Part shown: positions 1,531 to 9,122 of the stretch, piece by piece
Numbering within the stretch: position 1 is the stretch's first letter
Layout: every line of letters begins with the position of its first letter
Origin: Candidatus Iainarchaeum sp.
GTDB lineage: Archaea > Iainarchaeota > Iainarchaeia > Iainarchaeales > CSSED10-239
DNA: 11,374 bases
Direction: 5' to 3'
NCBI GenBank assembly: GCA_028693335.1
Contig: JAQUVR010000013.1
Location: 1 to 11,374, forward strand
Position numbers and translations under genes: made by a program
The notes under the pieces: model-generated
Database searches by the model: none
The model's input: the letters and a program-made list of their open reading frames with translations, nothing else
What the model was told of the DNA's origin: nothing

Positions 1531-1623
1531 ATGCTTAATAAAAGATCTCTCTCCCCATTGATCGCAACGATCTTACTAATTGTAGTATCAGTAATATTAA
1601 TAACTGTGATTTTAACTTGGGGC
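1531..1623 (+). other. Class III signal peptide and hydrophobic pilin helix coding segment (gene A1)
   Basis: MLNKRS|LSPLIATILLIVVSVILITVILTWG. The predicted prepilin-peptidase site follows the basic residues and Ser. Confidence 0.7.
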
Positions 1624-2829
1624 TCTACTTTTGCAAAAGAACATTTGTCTTCTCAAACAATAACCATAAACAAATCTGATTTGACTGGGTTAATTATAAG
1701 TAGACCTATCTCAAATAATCAATTATTTTTAAATAATCAATCTTCTATAGATTTAAATATTATTGGTTATAATATAATTTTACCGACGAATCATTATCTA
1801 TTTGATGATTTTTCAAATAAAACATTTTATTTAGATTCTCCGTTTTATTTATCTAAAAATTCACAAGAATTATTAGTTGTTGAATGTTTTCCATCAAATA
1901 ATTTTTTCATAAATCTTTTAACTTCTGAAAATAATTTTATTAAGGTTTCAGTTACTACTAACATTACTTTAAATCCAGAAACTAGTAATTTTATTCAAAG
2001 AGTGAAAAATGATGGTGGTGTTATAGTTGATGTTTGTGCAATAGATAATAGAATAACATTTTTAAAAGCAAATGGACTCTGGGAAAAATTAAGAGGAGAA
2101 CATTCTTTAAATTTTGGAATAAAATTTAATTCTTCTAATCCAAATTTAGTTGAAAAAATTTATTCTATAAAAGGAGAAGATGATTTTTTACAAACAAATC
2201 CAGATCTTCAGGGGGAATTTTTAGAAAATGGTTTAAATCAAAAGGCAATTTTAAAAATTACAAATAAAAATCAAGTATATGATATTATTAATGATGGTAA
2301 AAAATGGATTAGACATGTAAATAAAATGGAACACTCTGTGGTAGTTAAATATCATTCTTTCCCATTAGATCAGATTTTTTATACTATTAATTTATATTTA
2401 TATAGCAATAGTCAATCAGATTATCCTAGTGTGTATTTTGGATTAAATGTTGCTGGTTGGAGTTCAGCAGATAATGCCTCAAAACCAGGATTTTATGTTA
2501 AAAAAAATACTGTTGAAAGAGATTGGCAACAATCAAGTACATTAATCCCAAATGATTTTATGGTTTTTGATTCTTTTTGGGATGTTGAAAATAGATCAAT
2601 TAAACAACACTTAAATAATAACTTGGTGCACATTAGAACGGTTTTAACTTCTGGGTATACTGCAGATTATGATGTTACTGCTGCACAAGTTATTAAAAAC
2701 TATTCTGCTCCCACCTTTGAAATTCCAACAAAAGAATATGCCCATTTTTCTTTCTGGAATTTAGTTATGTCTGATGAACAAAGATTAAAAAATTATAATT
2801 GGCATAAAAATTATTATGAATTAGAATAA
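1531..2829 (+). CDS. Type IV pilin-like (class III signal peptide) surface protein, paralog type A copy 1. The C-terminal domain is unassigned, possibly a divergent LamG/ConA-like jelly roll.
   Basis: The N-terminus MLNKRS|LSPLIATILLIVVSVILITVILTWG matches the archaeal Pilin_N (DUF1628-type) pattern. A shared post-leader module (DLTGLIISRPIS...VVECFP...DVCAID) follows. The C-terminus HFSFWNLVMSDEQRLKNYNW resembles the terminal strand and helix of LamG domains (compare FKIYDRALTSEEILKLYN in the gene at 6940). Confidence 0.85.
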   Translation: MLNKRSLSPLIATILLIVVSVILITVILTWGSTFAKEHLSSQTITINKSDLTGLIISRPISNNQLFLNNQSSIDLNIIGYNIILPTNHYLFDDFSNKTFYLDSPFYLSKNSQELLVVECFPSNNFFINLLTSENNFIKVSVTTNITLNPETSNFIQRVKNDGGVIVDVCAIDNRITFLKANGLWEKLRGEHSLNFGIKFNSSNPNLVEKIYSIKGEDDFLQTNPDLQGEFLENGLNQKAILKITNKNQVYDIINDGKKWIRHVNKMEHSVVVKYHSFPLDQIFYTINLYLYSNSQSDYPSVYFGLNVAGWSSADNASKPGFYVKKNTVERDWQQSSTLIPNDFMVFDSFWDVENRSIKQHLNNNLVHIRTVLTSGYTADYDVTAAQVIKNYSAPTFEIPTKEYAHFSFWNLVMSDEQRLKNYNWHKNYYELE

Positions 2830-2830
2830 G

Positions 2831-2932
2831 ATGAGTGATTTGAAAAATAAAAAAAGTTTGTCCCCATTGATCGCAACAATATTATTAATAGTTGTATCAG
2901 TAATATTAATTAGTGTGATCTTAACCTGGGGA
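2831..2932 (+). other. Class III signal peptide and hydrophobic pilin helix coding segment (gene B1)
   Basis: MSDLKNKKS|LSPLIATILLIVVSVILISVILTWG. Confidence 0.7.
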
Positions 2933-4234
2933 TCAAGCTTTGCTAAAAACAACACAGAAAAAGCAAATACTTTTTTAGAGTCCTCAAAACAGATTCCAAA
3001 AAGTGGTGTTTTTTGGCTAGATTCTTTAATAGGAGATAAAGTTATTCTAAAAAATAATCTGAGTTCTTCAGTAGAGATTAAAGGATATAAAATCTTAAAA
3101 ACTGATTTTAATTCAGATTATTTTTGGTTAAATAGTTATAGATCTTTAGAGAATAATCTGATTTTTAATGCATCTTCACTAAACTCTATTCCTTTAGTGT
3201 GTGTTCCAGAAAGTAAGTTTTTTTTAGAGCTAATAGATGTTAATGATCAGCCCTACTCTATAGAGATTAACCCAAGAGGTAACAGCTCTTACACAAAATG
3301 TAATGCTTTTAATGTTCCGTTGTGGGAGTTTGAAGAGGTGAGTGGATCTTATACTATAAATACATTCACAAAAGAACAAGGTGATTTGATTACTAATGGC
3401 GGATTTGATATAGACACAGCATGGATTAAAGAAACAAATTGGTCTGTTTTCGATGGAACTGCAAATGCAAATAATGCTAACGGTTCAGCAATAAGACAAA
3501 ATAATATATTAATGGTAAATAAAAAATATTTGGTTATTTTTGAAGTTAAAAATTATGTTTCTGGATTTGTTAGGTTTTATACCGGAACTGGTGCAGATGG
3601 AACTAGTAGAAATTCAAATGGTTTATATTATCAAACAGTTTATGCAGCTACCACAAATTTACAATTTATTGGTGCTAGTTTTACGGGGTCAATAGACAAT
3701 GTTTCAGTAACTGAAGTAGATCCTTTAGAAACAATAACAGACGGAACAAAGTATCTTGAAATTATATCTTATACTGGCACAAGTTTAATTTCTTCTGAAA
3801 ATAAACAAGTTTATGGGGTTTGGGAATTTGATTTTTATTATACAGATATATTTGGATATATACTATTTATAAATGATGATTTAAATAATGGTTTATCTAA
3901 TACCACAGGATATACCCTTGTATATAATTGTACTGGCAATAATGATTTTACTTTACGCAGATATGTTTCAGGAAGTGTTTCTGCTGGTTTATTTACTTCT
4001 TCACAAAATGTTCTTTCTAAAAATACGTGGTATAGATTTAAAATTATTAGATATTTAAATAATACTTTTGATATTTATTTAATGGGTGGGCAATATGGAG
4101 ATAATTGGATAAAAATAAATTCTACAGCAATTACGGATTCAAGTCCAATAATAACTTCAAATGCTTTTTCTATTTATAATCCAAGAGTTGGAGATAGAAT
4201 TGCAAATCTAAAAATAACTCCGGAGATCGAGTAA
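2831..4234 (+). CDS. Type IV pilin-like surface protein, paralog type B copy 1, with a CBM-like jelly-roll domain and a ConA/LamG-like domain
   Basis: The N-terminus is MSDLKNKKS|LSPLIATILLIVVSVILISVILTWG, followed by the shared module (...IPLVCVPESKFF...YTKCNAF). The middle region runs from LITNGGFDIDTAWIKETNW to FTGSIDNVSVTEV, a pattern typical of CBM4/9-like or galactose-binding-like domains. The distal region (WEFDFYY...GYTLVY...NTWYRFKIIRY..FDIYLMG) looks like a concanavalin A-like lectin or glucanase fold. The start lies 1 nt after the upstream stop. Confidence 0.85.
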   Translation: MSDLKNKKSLSPLIATILLIVVSVILISVILTWGSSFAKNNTEKANTFLESSKQIPKSGVFWLDSLIGDKVILKNNLSSSVEIKGYKILKTDFNSDYFWLNSYRSLENNLIFNASSLNSIPLVCVPESKFFLELIDVNDQPYSIEINPRGNSSYTKCNAFNVPLWEFEEVSGSYTINTFTKEQGDLITNGGFDIDTAWIKETNWSVFDGTANANNANGSAIRQNNILMVNKKYLVIFEVKNYVSGFVRFYTGTGADGTSRNSNGLYYQTVYAATTNLQFIGASFTGSIDNVSVTEVDPLETITDGTKYLEIISYTGTSLISSENKQVYGVWEFDFYYTDIFGYILFINDDLNNGLSNTTGYTLVYNCTGNNDFTLRRYVSGSVSAGLFTSSQNVLSKNTWYRFKIIRYLNNTFDIYLMGGQYGDNWIKINSTAITDSSPIITSNAFSIYNPRVGDRIANLKITPEIE

Positions 4235-4236
4235 TA

Positions 4237-4326
4237 ATGTTTAAAAGATCTCTCTCCTCATTGATCGCAACTATTTTATTAATAGTTGTAAGTGTGATAT
4301 TGATCACTGTTGTTTTAACATGGGGC
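4237..4326 (+). other. Class III signal peptide and hydrophobic pilin helix coding segment (gene A2)
   Basis: MFKRS|LSSLIATILLIVVSVILITVVLTWG. The otherwise invariant Pro of LSP is Ser here. Confidence 0.65.
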
Positions 4327-5532
4327 TCAGACTTTGCAAGAGAACATTTGTCTTCTCAAACAACAACCATAAACAAATCTGATTTGACTGGGTTAATTAT
4401 AAGTAGACCTATCTCAAATAATCAATTATTTTTAAATAATCAATCTTCTATAGATTTAAATATTATTGGTTATAATATAATTTTACCGACGAATCATTAT
4501 CTATTTGATGATTTTTCAAATAAAACATTTTATTTAGATTCTCCGTTTTATTTATCTAAAAATTCACAAGAATTATTAGTTGTTGAATGTTTTCCATCAA
4601 ATAATTTTTTCATAAATCTTTTAACTTCTGAAAATAATTTTATTAAGGTTTCAGTTACTACTAACATTACTTTAAATCCAGAAACTAGTAATTTTATTCA
4701 AAGAGTGAAAAATGATGGTGGTGTTATAGTTGATGTTTGTGCAATAGATAATAGAATAACATTTTTAAAAGCAAATGGACTCTGGGAAAAATTAAGAGGA
4801 GAACATTCTTTAAATTTTGGAATAAAATTTAATTCTTCTAATCCAAATTTAGTTGAAAAAATTTATTCTATAAAAGGAGAAGATGATTTTTTACAAACAA
4901 ATCCAGATCTTCAGGGGGAATTTTTAGAAAATGGTTTAAATCAAAAGGCAATTTTAAAAATTACAAATAAAAATCAAGTATATGATATTATTAATGATGG
5001 TAAAAAATGGATTAGACATGTAAATAAAATGGAACACTCTGTGGTAGTTAAATATCATTCTTTCCCATTAGATCAGATTTTTTATACTATTAATTTATAT
5101 TTATATAGCAATAGTCAATCAGATTATCCTAGTGTGTATTTTGGATTAAATGTTGCTGGTTGGAGTTCAGCAGATAATGCCTCAAAACCAGGATTTTATG
5201 TTAAAAAAAATACTGTTGAAAGAGATTGGCAACAATCAAGTACATTAATCCCAAATGATTTTATGGTTTTTGATTCTTTTTGGGATGTTGAAAATAGATC
5301 AATTAAACAACACTTAAATAATAACTTGGTGCACATTAGAACGGTTTTAACTTCTGGGTATACTGCAGATTATGATGTTACTGCTGCACAAGTTATTAAA
5401 AACTATTCTGCTCCCACCTTTGAAATTCCAACAAAAGAATATGCCCATTTTTCTTTCTGGAATTTAGTTATGTCTGATGAACAAAGATTAAAAAATTATA
5501 ATTGGCATAAAAATTATTATGAATTAGAATAA
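4237..5532 (+). CDS. Type IV pilin-like surface protein, paralog type A copy 2, with a chimeric 5' end
   Basis: From the EHLSSQT motif onward the protein matches the gene at 1531 with one substitution (I to T). The first 105 nt instead match the 5' end of the gene at 6940, with 3 mismatches. Confidence 0.85.
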   Translation: MFKRSLSSLIATILLIVVSVILITVVLTWGSDFAREHLSSQTTTINKSDLTGLIISRPISNNQLFLNNQSSIDLNIIGYNIILPTNHYLFDDFSNKTFYLDSPFYLSKNSQELLVVECFPSNNFFINLLTSENNFIKVSVTTNITLNPETSNFIQRVKNDGGVIVDVCAIDNRITFLKANGLWEKLRGEHSLNFGIKFNSSNPNLVEKIYSIKGEDDFLQTNPDLQGEFLENGLNQKAILKITNKNQVYDIINDGKKWIRHVNKMEHSVVVKYHSFPLDQIFYTINLYLYSNSQSDYPSVYFGLNVAGWSSADNASKPGFYVKKNTVERDWQQSSTLIPNDFMVFDSFWDVENRSIKQHLNNNLVHIRTVLTSGYTADYDVTAAQVIKNYSAPTFEIPTKEYAHFSFWNLVMSDEQRLKNYNWHKNYYELE

Positions 5533-5533
5533 G

Positions 5534-5635
5534 ATGAGTGATTTGAAAAATAAAAAAAGTTTGTCCCCATTGATCGCAACAATATTATTAATAGTTGTAT
5601 CAGTAATATTAATTAGTGTGATCTTAACCTGGGGA
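5534..5635 (+). other. Class III signal peptide and hydrophobic pilin helix coding segment (gene B2)
   Basis: Identical to the B1 leader. Confidence 0.7.
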
Positions 5636-6937
5636 TCAAGCTTTGCTAAAAACAACACAGAAAAAGCAAATACTTTTTTAGAGTCCTCAAAACAGATTCC
5701 AAAAAGTGGTGTTTTTTGGCTAGATTCTTTAATAGGAGATAAAGTTATTCTAAAAAATAATCTGAGTTCTTCAGTAGAGATTAAAGGATATAAAATCTTA
5801 AAAACTGATTTTAATTCAGATTATTTTTGGTTAAATAGTTATAGATCTTTAGAGAATAATCTGATTTTTAATGCATCTTCACTAAACTCTATTCCTTTAG
5901 TGTGTGTTCCAGAAAGTAAGTTTTTTTTAGAGCTAATAGATGTTAATGATCAGCCCTACTCTATAGAGATTAACCCAAGAGGTAACAGCTCTTACACAAA
6001 ATGTAATGCTTTTAATGTTCCGTTGTGGGAGTTTGAAGAGGTGAGTGGATCTTATACTATAAATACATTCACAAAAGAACAAGGTGATTTGATTACTAAT
6101 GGCGGATTTGATATAGACACAGCATGGATTAAAGAAACAAATTGGTCTGTTTTCGATGGAACTGCAAATGCAAATAATGCTAACGGTTCAGCAATAAGAC
6201 AAAATAATATATTAATGGTAAATAAAAAATATTTGGTTATTTTTGAAGTTAAAAATTATGTTTCTGGATTTGTTAGGTTTTATACCGGAACTGGTGCAGA
6301 TGGAACTAGTAGAAATTCAAATGGTTTATATTATCAAACAGTTTATGCAGCTACCACAAATTTACAATTTATTGGTGCTAGTTTTACGGGGTCAATAGAC
6401 AATGTTTCAGTAACTGAAGTAGATCCTTTAGAAACAATAACAGACGGAACAAAGTATCTTGAAATTATATCTTATACTGGCACAAGTTTAATTTCTTCTG
6501 AAAATAAACAAGTTTATGGGGTTTGGGAATTTGATTTTTATTATACAGATATATTTGGATATATACTATTTATAAATGATGATTTAAATAATGGTTTATC
6601 TAATACCACAGGATATACCCTTGTATATAATTGTACTGGCAATAATGATTTTACTTTACGCAGATATGTTTCAGGAAGTGTTTCTGCTGGTTTATTTACT
6701 TCTTCACAAAATGTTCTTTCTAAAAATACGTGGTATAGATTTAAAATTATTAGATATTTAAATAATACTTTTGATATTTATTTAATGGGTGGGCAATATG
6801 GAGATAATTGGATAAAAATAAATTCTACAGCAATTACGGATTCAAGTCCAATAATAACTTCAAATGCTTTTTCTATTTATAATCCAAGAGCTGGAGATAG
6901 AATTGCAAATCTAAAAATAACTCCGGAGATCGAGTAA
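5534..6937 (+). CDS. Type IV pilin-like surface protein, paralog type B copy 2
   Basis: The 467-aa protein matches the gene at 2831 except V453A (gtt at 4187-4189 versus gct at 6890-6892). Confidence 0.85.
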   Translation: MSDLKNKKSLSPLIATILLIVVSVILISVILTWGSSFAKNNTEKANTFLESSKQIPKSGVFWLDSLIGDKVILKNNLSSSVEIKGYKILKTDFNSDYFWLNSYRSLENNLIFNASSLNSIPLVCVPESKFFLELIDVNDQPYSIEINPRGNSSYTKCNAFNVPLWEFEEVSGSYTINTFTKEQGDLITNGGFDIDTAWIKETNWSVFDGTANANNANGSAIRQNNILMVNKKYLVIFEVKNYVSGFVRFYTGTGADGTSRNSNGLYYQTVYAATTNLQFIGASFTGSIDNVSVTEVDPLETITDGTKYLEIISYTGTSLISSENKQVYGVWEFDFYYTDIFGYILFINDDLNNGLSNTTGYTLVYNCTGNNDFTLRRYVSGSVSAGLFTSSQNVLSKNTWYRFKIIRYLNNTFDIYLMGGQYGDNWIKINSTAITDSSPIITSNAFSIYNPRAGDRIANLKITPEIE

Positions 6938-6939
6938 TA

Positions 6940-7029
6940 ATGTTTAAAAAATCTCTCTCCCCATTGATCGCAACTATTTTATTAATAGTTGTAAGTGTGA
7001 TATTGATTACTGTTGTTTTAACATGGGGC
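6940..7029 (+). other. Class III signal peptide and hydrophobic pilin helix coding segment (gene C)
   Basis: MFKKS|LSPLIATILLIVVSVILITVVLTWG. Confidence 0.7.
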
Positions 7030-8013
7030 TCAGACTTTGCAAGAGATAAACTATCCACCGCAAAAACCATATCCACTCAAACTACAGATCTAACTGGTTT
7101 AGTTTCTTCAAGATCAATTTCTTCTCAAAATATTTTAATATCTAATAATTCTTCAAAAGATCTTAATGTTACGGGATATAAGATCATCTCTTCTATAGAT
7201 CATTATCTTTATGATTATTTTGAAAATAAAATATATAATTTAGATCAACCATTAATCATTAATTCAAATTCAGCACAAAGTTTACAAATAGATTGTTATC
7301 CAGAAAATACATTTTTTATAGATCTTTTAACAGATCAAAACATTTATGTAAGAACACAAGTTCTTGTAGGATCTATAAATGATATAGATCCTTTGAGTTG
7401 TGGATTAATTAGCTATTGGAAATTTGATGGAGATACAAAAGATAATTTTAAAAAACACGATTTAACAGTAGTAGGAAACACTCAATATGTTGATGGTGTT
7501 TTAGATCAAGCATTAAGTTTTACTAATTCTAGTTATGCTAGAAATAATTCTTTTTATTTATCTGCAGACCCTAACTTTACTATATCTACATGGGTGAAAA
7601 AAACAGACCTTATTAATCAAAGGGGGGTCTGGGGCATAGGTAGTGGAAGTTATGAAACTATGTCTGGATATAATAGTGTTGGAGAATATATTGGAGTTGA
7701 TTTCTGGGCCAGAGCCACTTTTTATATTCAAGAAGAATATCCTATAGATGAATGGATCTATGTAACCTGGGTTAAAAAAGCCGCAACTTTTTCAATAGAT
7801 TCTTTTGAAATATATTTAAATGGACATAAAAAAAACCTGTTTAGAAGTAGGGGTTCTATACATTCTGTAACAACAACAAACGGAATAACAATTGGGGGAA
7901 TATATCCTAGTAGCACATTTTCAGCAACAGCGGTTTTAGATGATTTTAAAATTTATGATAGGGCTTTAACTTCTGAAGAAATTTTAAAATTATATAATTT
8001 CTATAATAGTTAA
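6940..8013 (+). CDS. Type IV pilin-like surface protein with a C-terminal LamG (Laminin_G_3 / ConA-like lectin) domain, paralog type C
   Basis: The N-terminus is MFKKS|LSPLIATILLIVVSVILITVVLTWG, followed by the shared module with Cys119 and Cys154. From about nt 7402 the LamG hallmarks appear: LISYWKFDGDTKD...HDLTVVGNTQYVDGVLDQALSF, FTISTWVK, EWIYVTWV, FEIYLNG and LDDFKIYDRALTSEEILKLYN. Confidence 0.88.
   Translation: MFKKSLSPLIATILLIVVSVILITVVLTWGSDFARDKLSTAKTISTQTTDLTGLVSSRSISSQNILISNNSSKDLNVTGYKIISSIDHYLYDYFENKIYNLDQPLIINSNSAQSLQIDCYPENTFFIDLLTDQNIYVRTQVLVGSINDIDPLSCGLISYWKFDGDTKDNFKKHDLTVVGNTQYVDGVLDQALSFTNSSYARNNSFYLSADPNFTISTWVKKTDLINQRGVWGIGSGSYETMSGYNSVGEYIGVDFWARATFYIQEEYPIDEWIYVTWVKKAATFSIDSFEIYLNGHKKNLFRSRGSIHSVTTTNGITIGGIYPSSTFSATAVLDDFKIYDRALTSEEILKLYNFYNS
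7115..7263 (+). repeat. Near-identical 149-nt tract shared by paralogs C and D (copy in C)
   Basis: Aligns with 8200-8348 at an offset of 1085 nt with a single mismatch (7173 g versus 8258 t). The flanking coding sequence is visibly more diverged. Confidence 0.8.
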
Positions 8014-8027
8014 TAAACTAGATAAAC

Positions 8028-8120
8028 ATGTATAAAAAAAAATCTCTCTCCCCATTGATCGCAACTATTTTGTTAATAGTTGTAAGTGTGATATTAATCA
8101 CTGTTGTTTTAACCTGGGGA
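8028..8120 (+). other. Class III signal peptide and hydrophobic pilin helix coding segment (gene D)
   Basis: MYKKKS|LSPLIATILLIVVSVILITVVLTWG. Confidence 0.7.
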
Positions 8121-9122
8121 TCTAGTTTTACAAAAGAAAAACTATCTACAACCCAAGTAATTCAAAATAAAGATTTTACTGGATTAATTACAAGTAGACC
8201 AATTTCTTCTCAAAATATTTTAATATCTAATAATTCTTCAAAAGATCTTAATGTTACTGGATATAAGATCATCTCTTCTATAGATCATTATCTTTATGAT
8301 TATTTTGAAAATAAAATATATAATTTAGATCAACCATTAATCATTAATCCAAATTCTGCACAAACTTTGCAAATAGATTGTTATCCAGAAAGCTCTTTTT
8401 TTATAGATCTAATAACAGATCAAAATATATATGTAAGAACACAAATATCTGCGAGATCTATAAATGATGTAGATTCATTAAAATGTGGGTTAGTTCTAGA
8501 TTTTGATTCTATTAATGGTGTTTTAAATGAAAACACCGGAAAATCTTTTACGCCATATAATATAGACATTTTAGATCTGGGTAATGGTTATACTTCTGCA
8601 AGTTTTAATGGTACAAATAGTTATATTAGTTTTGGAAATCCAGAAAGTTTAATATTTGGAGAAAAACCATTTAGTGTTGTTATTTTATTTAAAACAAACT
8701 CTGTTTCTACTTCTCAAGCAATAGTTTCAAAAGGATATTTGTTTGGAGGCACTCCGTTAGATAATAAATCCTGGTCAATTGGTTTATTAGGTTCTAGTTC
8801 AAGAATCTATTTTGACACATATAAAACCGGACAAAGAAGGGCATTAGTTTCAATAAATTTAATAACTACTAATTGGCAGTATTTAGTAACTACCAGAGAT
8901 CAAGAATTAGGAAAAATTTATTTTAATAATTCTTTAGATATTTCTGGGCCTGTAGTAAATCCAATAGAAGATTCTTTTTATAATCTAATGATTGGAAGAA
9001 TAGCAATATCATCAATTTATTATTTTAATGGTTTAATACCTATTGTAAAAATATATGATCGTGTGTTAACAGAAGAGGAGATCTCAAATCTTTATAATAA
9101 AACAAAAGTAGTTTTTAATTAA
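8028..9122 (+). CDS. Type IV pilin-like surface protein with a C-terminal LamG-like domain, paralog type D
   Basis: The N-terminus is MYKKKS|LSPLIATILLIVVSVILITVVLTWG. The N-terminal half is very similar to gene C. The C-terminal half (from about nt 8487) is divergent but LamG-like: SASFNGTNSYISFG, PFSVVILFK, NWQYLVTT, GKIYFNN and IVKIYDRVLTEEEISNLYN. Confidence 0.85.
   Translation: MYKKKSLSPLIATILLIVVSVILITVVLTWGSSFTKEKLSTTQVIQNKDFTGLITSRPISSQNILISNNSSKDLNVTGYKIISSIDHYLYDYFENKIYNLDQPLIINPNSAQTLQIDCYPESSFFIDLITDQNIYVRTQISARSINDVDSLKCGLVLDFDSINGVLNENTGKSFTPYNIDILDLGNGYTSASFNGTNSYISFGNPESLIFGEKPFSVVILFKTNSVSTSQAIVSKGYLFGGTPLDNKSWSIGLLGSSSRIYFDTYKTGQRRALVSINLITTNWQYLVTTRDQELGKIYFNNSLDISGPVVNPIEDSFYNLMIGRIAISSIYYFNGLIPIVKIYDRVLTEEEISNLYNKTKVVFN
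8200..8348 (+). repeat. Near-identical 149-nt tract shared by paralogs C and D (copy in D)
   Basis: See the 7115-7263 entry. Confidence 0.8.

Follow-up and report, generated by a model that had tools for sequence, protein, structure and literature searches.

How does a unit of two complete genes come to stand twice, nearly without change, within a single gene array, and what do the edges of the two copies reveal about the way in which the second copy was added? This question is raised by an 11,374-nucleotide (nt) stretch of DNA, here called the window, which is a whole contig of the NCBI metagenome-assembled genome (MAG) "Candidatus ainarchaeum sp." (locus tags PHU47_01110 to 01135), a member of the Iainarchaeota within the DPANN/Nanobdellati group. 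Between the genes for phosphoenolpyruvate (PEP) synthase and 3-deoxy-D-arabino-heptulosonate 7-phosphate (DAHP) synthase, the window harbors six genes for pilin-like proteins, named A, B, A', B', C and D, where A' and B' repeat A and B. According to the list of open reading frames (ORFs), all six are located on the plus strand at a spacing of 1-14 nt, i.e., in an operon-like arrangement, and LemA is also found among the flanking genes.

DPANN archaea are believed to spend their lives attached to host cells, and little is understood about the adhesins on their surface. The data discussed below make it likely that the repeat arose by unequal homologous recombination between conserved leader segments, in a hypervariable array whose genes encode modular pilin-like lectins of the archaeal type. 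The locus would then show, at nucleotide resolution, how recombination in a signal-peptide and helix segment alters both the copy number and the repertoire of head domains.

The repeat and its chimeric joint

Self-comparison of the window at a period of 2703 nt yields two copies (Table 1) that follow each other head to tail without any spacer, i.e., 2.001 copies over 2706 aligned nt. The complete list of mismatches between these copies comprises positions 1661, 4188, 4247, 4258 and 4305, which corresponds to an identity of 99.8%, and the segment 1662-4187 (2526 nt) is 100% identical to 4365-6890. Beyond the repeat, the identity at the same offset is 20-45%, which is the background level. A chance repeat is ruled out by the 2.7-kb extent at 99.8% identity. 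The near-perfect tandem duplication of A-B that had been proposed in an initial annotation of this DNA is thus confirmed by the self-comparison, with exactly five differences.

Two of these differences alter the proteins outside the leader. A codon comparison showed that ATA is replaced by ACA at 1661/4364 (I44 in A, T43 in A') and GTT by GCT at 4188/6891 (V453A, B vs B'), which bears out the earlier claim of one substitution in A and V453A in B. The other three are found where the leader of A' is compared with that of C, and amount to K4R (4247), P8S (4258) and a synonymous ATC/ATT change (4305). The coordinates given earlier were right to within 1-2 nt, except that A and A' start 2706 rather than 2703 nt apart, because A has one additional codon; the 2703-nt register is valid from codon 2 of A.

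The second copy of A is not a plain copy of the first. The sequence of A' is C-like up to 4340 and A-like from 4344, and the three nucleotides in between, AGA, are common to A, A' and C (1638-1640 = 4341-4343 = 7044-7046), such that the switch is in frame. Over the leader, A' differs from C at three of 105 nt, while 24 of the 107 positions that can be aligned with the A leader differ (83/107 match, 77.6% identity). The initial annotation had described A' as a C-type leader followed by an A body, and this description holds, with the switch falling in the common AGA. The leaders of A and C, which would be the parental endpoints of an exchange, match at 83 of 107 nt, and their longest exact block is 24 nt.

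Architecture of the encoded proteins

Alignment of the array proteins reveals a three-part plan, i.e., a leader of ~35 amino acids (aa), followed by ~110 aa of beta stalk and by a head that varies. Each of the six copies begins with a start codon and a complete leader, and the ORFs of both duplicated gene pairs are intact and in frame. The N-terminus reads M..K(K/R)S|LSPLIATILLIVVSVILITVVLTWGS in each of the six proteins, where a cleavage motif is followed by a hydrophobic helix. On the basis of this motif the leader is identified as a predicted archaeal class III signal peptide (K/R-S|LSPLIAT) with a hydrophobic pilin helix of ~35 aa; in structure models the helix spans residues 9-40 and 12-53. 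The hidden Markov model (HMM) TIGR02537 (archaellin/type IV pilin N-terminal domain) matches all four paralogue types at 15.5-18.2 bits (18.2 for gene A; cutoff 20) and PF07790 at 17.4-18.9 bits (cutoff 25.2), and the matches to UpsA are weak too.

The P8S change noted above (position 4258) replaces Pro with Ser in the A' leader at an otherwise invariant position of the LSP motif, +3 after the predicted cleavage site. It may reflect relaxed constraint on an extra copy, or a strain or assembly variant.

The heads are of different types. Those of C and D match PF13385 (LamG) at 47.1 and 61.6 bits, respectively, above the cutoff of 27.6. The head of B resembles galectin and ConA-like proteins at the fold level only. 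An AlphaFold model of B (mean predicted local distance difference test score, pLDDT, of 64) displays an N-terminal helix, a stalk and a C-terminal domain at ~80-85; its best match in the PDB is 8fk7_A (Pyrobaculum archaeal type IV pilus; E = 2.3e-5, TMt = 0.47, for a model of moderate confidence), and the next fold matches are to galectin, glucanase, laminin-G and ConA-like structures. For the A head, no match was found in Pfam, and the head in the model of A, at pLDDT < 50, was unusable for a fold search. Among 1.84 billion representative proteins, the A head (1972-2826) has one full-length relative, P0002 (Logan SRR25909830), which is 78% identical.

The first ~70 residues of the A head (NFIQRVKNDGGVIVD...) match the phage family phrog_28256, the function of which is unknown, with E = 1.5e-11; the same module also precedes LamG domains in other proteins. 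From the combination of leader, stalk and head, the array proteins are presumably adhesins displayed on the surface or on a pilus, a putative function.

Leader-bounded mosaicism among relatives

The initial annotation had also suggested that the leader acts as portable homology. Related loci allow this idea to be evaluated, and in three of them (L001-L003) independent events at leader boundaries were found that back it. In the first, L003 (ENA assembly ERZ16299754, 5.2 kb), PEP synthase and the same intergenic region as in the window are followed by the positional orthologue of the A leader, which is fused directly to a B body. Here, the switch from leader to body occurs at the same codon position as in the A' joint. 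The B body of L003 is 99.07% identical to that of B' (L003 3835-5220 vs window 5651-7036), while PEP synthase is only 94.5% identical, and the leader that follows B is 100% identical to the C leader.

The second locus, L002 (GCA_030154545.1), displays the order PEP synthase, B-like gene, three LamG genes, DAHP synthase and LemA, and has no A gene. Its flanking orthologues are 87-95% identical to those of the window (98% for LemA). The segment L002 1421-2537 is 99.73% identical to a cassette of the window that extends from the leader core of C to the next leader core, but it is found at another locus, upstream of PEP synthase, and it carries a premature stop (TGG to TAG at L002 2226).

In the third, L001 (Logan assembly of SRR25909830, 2.3 kb), a B-like gene is followed directly by an A-like gene (79% aa and 84% nt identity), the first ~57 residues of which are D-like. 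The gene that comes after the A-like gene has a C/A-type leader. A further locus, L029 (GTDB species representative CAZPGO01), carries a 362-aa LamG-type gene on the first leader after PEP synthase.

The leader on the PEP-synthase side keeps its place in these loci, and the body behind it varies: it is A in the window, B in both L002 and L003, and of a LamG type in L029. Between genomes with flanks at ~94% identity, the B and C cassettes are at 99.1-99.7%, and the boundaries of these cassettes are located within leaders. In other words, near-identical cassettes are common to genomes in which the neighboring housekeeping genes differ by 5-7%. Besides the A' joint, at least three independent leader-boundary events are seen. 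As far as can be judged from these alignments, the flanks and the first leader stay in place while the bodies behind the leaders are exchanged, a pattern that supports the portable-homology idea well.

Sequence exchange is also apparent further inside the genes. The segment 7115-7263 in the C stalk and the segment 8200-8348 in the D stalk (149 nt, both on the plus strand) differ at a single position, while 21 mismatches are found in the preceding 55 nt; this patch is a probable gene-conversion tract between paralogues.

Exact-protein look-ups of A, A' and P0001 returned no other contig, a scan of JGI metagenomes for the novel joint (as a 26-mer) gave no match, and neither did a profile scan of JGI metagenomes for the A head. 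A singleton B-like gene, found in an unrelated context (L004), is uninformative.

Origin of the repeat

In the proposed mechanism, unequal homologous recombination would have occurred between two paralogous leaders, that of A and that of a C-type gene following B. Resolution where the 107 nt of leader homology end on the 3' side would then give an in-frame chimeric A', composed of a C-type leader and an A body, together with a second B. The same leader homology has probably served repeatedly in this lineage for the exchange, deletion, import and duplication of head cassettes, which would make the array a hypervariable region of cassettes with conserved sequence on either side. Recombination between the A and C leaders had already been put forward in the initial annotation, and the joint is the in-register chimera that such a recombination predicts. 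Duplication of whole genes in tandem followed by conversion of the leader was considered as another route and is ruled out, as the intergenic sequence upstream of A is not found before A'.

Several observations weigh against this explanation. First, the un-duplicated A-B-C-D array, which would be the parent and for which a comparison with sister genomes had been suggested, was found in no relative: it is absent from L003, L002 and L029, and scans of JGI and GTDB were negative. In both close relatives (L003 and L002), the first leader leads straight into a B-type body, and the A head is found elsewhere only in L001, where A follows B. Second, the crossover point consists of only 3 nt of identity, ~70 nt on the 3' side of the sole long exact block (24 nt). 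This position is compatible with branch migration stalling at the border of homology, yet it gives an atypical picture of a crossover. Third, one of the five differences is 23 nt away from the left edge of the repeat and the others are 39-156 nt away from its right edge; clustering of this kind has a probability of ~1e-6 under a uniform spread and ~2e-5 with symmetric edge zones of 156 nt. Fourth, the leaders of A' and C have diverged, as described above, while the 2526-nt interior has no difference at all, where a single recent event followed by random mutation predicts otherwise. Fifth, an exact repeat of 2.5 kb within one contig can only arise by traversal of a loop in the assembly graph, and therefore the copy number (two or more), the identity of the interior and the presence of both copies in one genome lack independent support. 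Finally, the scores of the pilin HMMs are under the curated cutoffs.

The distribution of the differences bears mainly on the age of the joint. The segment of 177 nt around the joint (4188-4364) displays 2.8% divergence, compared to 0% in the other 2526 nt, and the crowding of all five differences into this junction segment weakens the earlier notion of a very recent event. At the four sites near the right edge, L003 has the same nucleotides as copy 2 throughout, which means that the derived states are located in 4188-4305. The T43 of A' is probably also derived, because the paralogues have Ile at this position. The edge pattern fits gene-conversion edge effects, or a short-read loop traversal with a collapsed interior, over a simple recent duplication. 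Gene conversion is inefficient at the edges of homology, so that the joint would be older than it appears. A short-read assembler, on the other hand, can phase a variant only if a k-mer or read connects it to unique sequence, and it pops interior bubbles, so that the interior would be one consensus written twice. The edge clustering suggests a joint older than an identity of 99.8% would indicate, with an interior that has been homogenised either by gene conversion or by the assembler. The case illustrates how a tandem repeat assembled from short reads can seem younger and closer to perfect than it may be.

The first of these two possibilities, a real but old duplication, is a timing variant of leader-mediated recombination rather than an exclusive rival, and we regard it as tentative. 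Here, the A-B-A-B order or the B-to-A joint would predate the divergence from the relatives, and the copies would have been homogenised by gene conversion that is weak at the edges. Such a history is consistent with the clustering of differences at the repeat edges and with the four changes within 118 nt of the joint that are derived relative to L003. The 149-nt patch in the C and D stalks points to paralogue conversion occurring in the array, and a B-to-A adjacency is found in L001, where identity amounts to no more than 84% (nt) and 79% (aa). However, the gene after A in L001 has a C/A-type rather than a B-type leader and the B-like gene of L001 is only ~50% identical to B, which leaves the orthology of the arrangement unproven. 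Furthermore, L003 and L002 are without any A, and collapse by the assembler gives an identical edge pattern.

The second possibility is that the repeat is an artefact of the assembly, a live alternative that we nevertheless consider unlikely. According to this explanation, one A-B unit was walked twice, either because of a co-existing strain with another cassette order (A behind B, as in L001 and possibly in L003) or because of a loop in the graph, and the interior is one collapsed consensus; the two-copy state, or the exact copy number and the 99.8% identity, would then not be properties of one genome. The variants 4247G, 4258T, 4305C and 4364C are, however, linked within 118 nt, between the 3' end of B and the body of A, and consequently a real B-Lc'-A molecule must exist. 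Put differently, real molecules must contain the joint itself, where within 177 nt the 3' end of B is followed by a leader carrying three private variants and by an A body carrying one. What an artefact could account for is the rest of the pattern, i.e., an exactly identical interior of 2526 nt and differences that are all at most 23 nt from the 5' edge or at most 156 nt from the 3' edge, close enough to unique sequence for a k-mer or a read to span. The MAG is fragmented, the contig is no longer than 11.4 kb, and no other assembly was found to contain exactly the A or the A' protein. Since genomes with B after PEP synthase (L003 and L002) and with a B-to-A adjacency (L001) exist, a graph built from mixed strains is plausible, but a walk through it would require the loss of the other branch edges (from La to the B body, and from the 3' end of A to another leader). 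Moreover, assemblers usually collapse or break at such repeats instead of expanding them, and both copies are intact and in frame.

Import of the second A-B unit from a sibling strain, as a fragment or as an excised circle (Lc'::A-Lb::B-Lc) integrated by leader recombination, would replace an unequal crossover within one chromosome or between sister chromosomes, and appears improbable: cassettes have clearly moved between lineages (C is 99.73% and B 99.07% identical, with flanks at ~94%) and the junction-specific variants could be donor alleles, but with a diverged donor, differences would be expected all along the unit and not at its edges only, unless the assembler collapsed the interior, and the product is structurally indistinguishable from that of an unequal crossover.

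Relation to known systems

Unequal homologous recombination between leaders, the explanation preferred here, belongs to a textbook class, in which recombination between dispersed short homologies expands and contracts multigene families. The locus resembles a textbook tandem duplication in that the copies are arranged head to tail without a spacer, the joint is an in-register chimera of the unit ends and the endpoints are paralogous (77.6% over 107 nt, with the 24-nt exact block). In addition, a candidate for the reciprocal type of product, a deletion form (La::B), is found in the relative L003. It differs in that the homology is very short and diverged with a 3-nt crossover, that the parental state is not observed and that the copy number in the MAG is putative.

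Variation of surface-protein cassettes via conserved 5' segments is a feature of pilE/pilS gene conversion in Neisseria and of the vlp/vsp-type lipoproteins of Mycoplasma. As in these systems, a conserved N-terminal segment recombines variable distal parts, which results in mosaic genes. However, the copies in the window are all complete genes in one array, without silent 5'-truncated donors, and the events consist of duplication, replacement and exchange on evolutionary time scales; programmed high-frequency switching is not evidenced. A diversity-generating retroelement or antigenic variation from silent cassettes is ruled out, as no repeats of the template/variable (TR/VR) type and no truncated donors are found in the window.

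The leader motif and the hydrophobic helix are common to the window proteins and the archaeal type IV pilins (PF07790, TIGR02537, UpsA and the Pyrobaculum calidifontis pilus, 8fk7), and the N-terminal part of the B model appears similar in fold to 8fk7. In contrast to these pilins, the window proteins are much larger (357-467 aa), carry lectin heads and score just below the HMM cutoffs. Diverse archaeal pilins and class III signal peptide proteins with binding domains, including systems that contain DPANN members, are described in a 2026 preprint.

In bacteria, modular pilins have been described in Streptococcus sanguinis, where PilB carries a vWA module and PilC a ConA-like lectin module (PMC8179133). 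A role in adhesion is predicted for both these pilins and the window proteins. The latter differ in that the N-terminus is of the archaeal type (TIGR02537/PF07790-like) and not IPR012902, that an extra conserved beta stalk is present and that six genes form one array in a DPANN genome. They are also known from sequence and models, on a contig without visible pilus machinery. With a textbook mechanism and a known class of genes, what the locus adds is comparative evidence for leader-bounded exchange of cassettes between lineages. If this exchange operates at the population level, it would offer a concrete and testable way in which uncultured episymbionts could rapidly diversify the specificity of their attachment.

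The leader core

The leaders contain a short core (Table 1). This core, (ATCTCTC)TCCCCATTGATCGCAAC, is kept at synonymous sites and contains GATC, often as AGATCT. In a comparison of 13 distinct leaders, taken from the window and L001-L003, the codons CTC, TCC, CCA, TTG, ATC and GCA are invariant or nearly so, while the neighboring codons vary synonymously. Some of the core codons are rare in the other genes of the window (fraction of the codon family: CTC, 0.00; TCC, 0.03; TTG, 0.07; ATC, 0.09). The string TTG ATC GCA AC is kept also in leaders whose selection did not depend on the 17-mer (that of L004 and some of those in L029, L075 and L076). The boundaries of the C cassette coincide with the leader core. 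A scan of GTDB genomes for the 17-nt leader core returned 72 stretches, which is approximately the number expected by chance, and multiple real matches were found only in the archaeal MAG CAZPGO01.

The conservation of the core may be due to selection at the nucleotide level, to translation or to frequent conversion. A more far-reaching idea, which we consider rather doubtful, is that the ~24-nt core (AG)ATCTCTCTCCCCATTGATCGCAAC, with its rare codons and its nucleotide-level conservation across paralogues and related genomes, is a dedicated recombination anchor that DPANN archaea use to duplicate, delete and move lectin-head cassettes and to import them from lineages diverged by 5-7%. Such an anchor would make the array a cassette-exchange system for host-attachment adhesins.

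Features of the contig and flanking genes

The coordinates of the features discussed above are collected in Table 1. The MAG is fragmented and of short-read style, and the window is 11.4 kb of it.

Table 1. Positions of the array genes, the repeat copies and the leader elements in the window
Feature	Position	Strand	Remarks
Gene A	1531..2829	+	432 aa; leader, stalk, orphan head; first array gene, downstream of PEP synthase
Leader La (A-type)	1531..1640	+	Orthologous by position to the leader that comes first after PEP synthase in L002 and L003
Leader core ATCTCTCTCCCCATTGATCGCAAC	1545..1568	+	Longest exact match of the A and C leaders, 24 nt
Repeat copy 1	1638..4343	+	Self-comparison at offset 2703
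Gene B	2831..4234	+	467 aa, V453; pilin-like leader Lb, stalk, beta-sandwich head
Further leader cores	2861-2877, 4255-4271, 5564-5580, 6951-6974, 8043-8065	+	Sequence comparison
Junction (loop-closing) segment	4188..4364	+	177 nt; all five inter-copy differences, four derived relative to L003
Gene A'	4237..5532	+	431 aa; C-type leader and A body, intact ORF
Leader Lc' of A'	4237..4340	+	C-type with K4R, P8S and one synonymous change
AGA	4341..4343	+	Putative resolved crossover point, 3' end of leader homology
Repeat copy 2	4341..7046	+	Offset 2703, five mismatches
Gene B'	5534..6937	+	467 aa, A453
Gene C	6940..8013	+	357 aa; pilin-like leader Lc, stalk, LamG head (PF13385, E = 3.7e-12)
C cassette	6949..8065	+	Leader core to next leader core; L002 1421-2537
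Gene D	8028..9122	+	364 aa; pilin-like leader Ld, stalk, LamG head (PF13385, E = 1.3e-16)

A minus-strand ORF at 6873-7076 is regarded as spurious. Scans of the window for tRNAs and Rfam families gave no matches, and a scan for bacterial promoters and terminators gave no enrichment, with models that are bacterial and not applicable to an archaeon. Genes for a prepilin peptidase, an assembly ATPase or a platform protein were not found on the 11.4-kb contig, which covers only part of the genome.

The contig begins within an intein of PEP synthase (intein tail 3-218, remainder of the enzyme 219-1439), which ends with ...ILVNN|CHAAIIAREHG. The PEP synthase orthologues of L002 and L003 (835 aa) are intein-free at this insertion site, and that of L029 (1356 aa) carries an intein at another site (...DLP|S...THN|SASFAGQ). 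A further B-type paralogue, P0039 (PHU47_03060), with 41% identity to B, is found on another contig (4207 nt) of the same MAG, i.e., the family extends beyond the array in the window.

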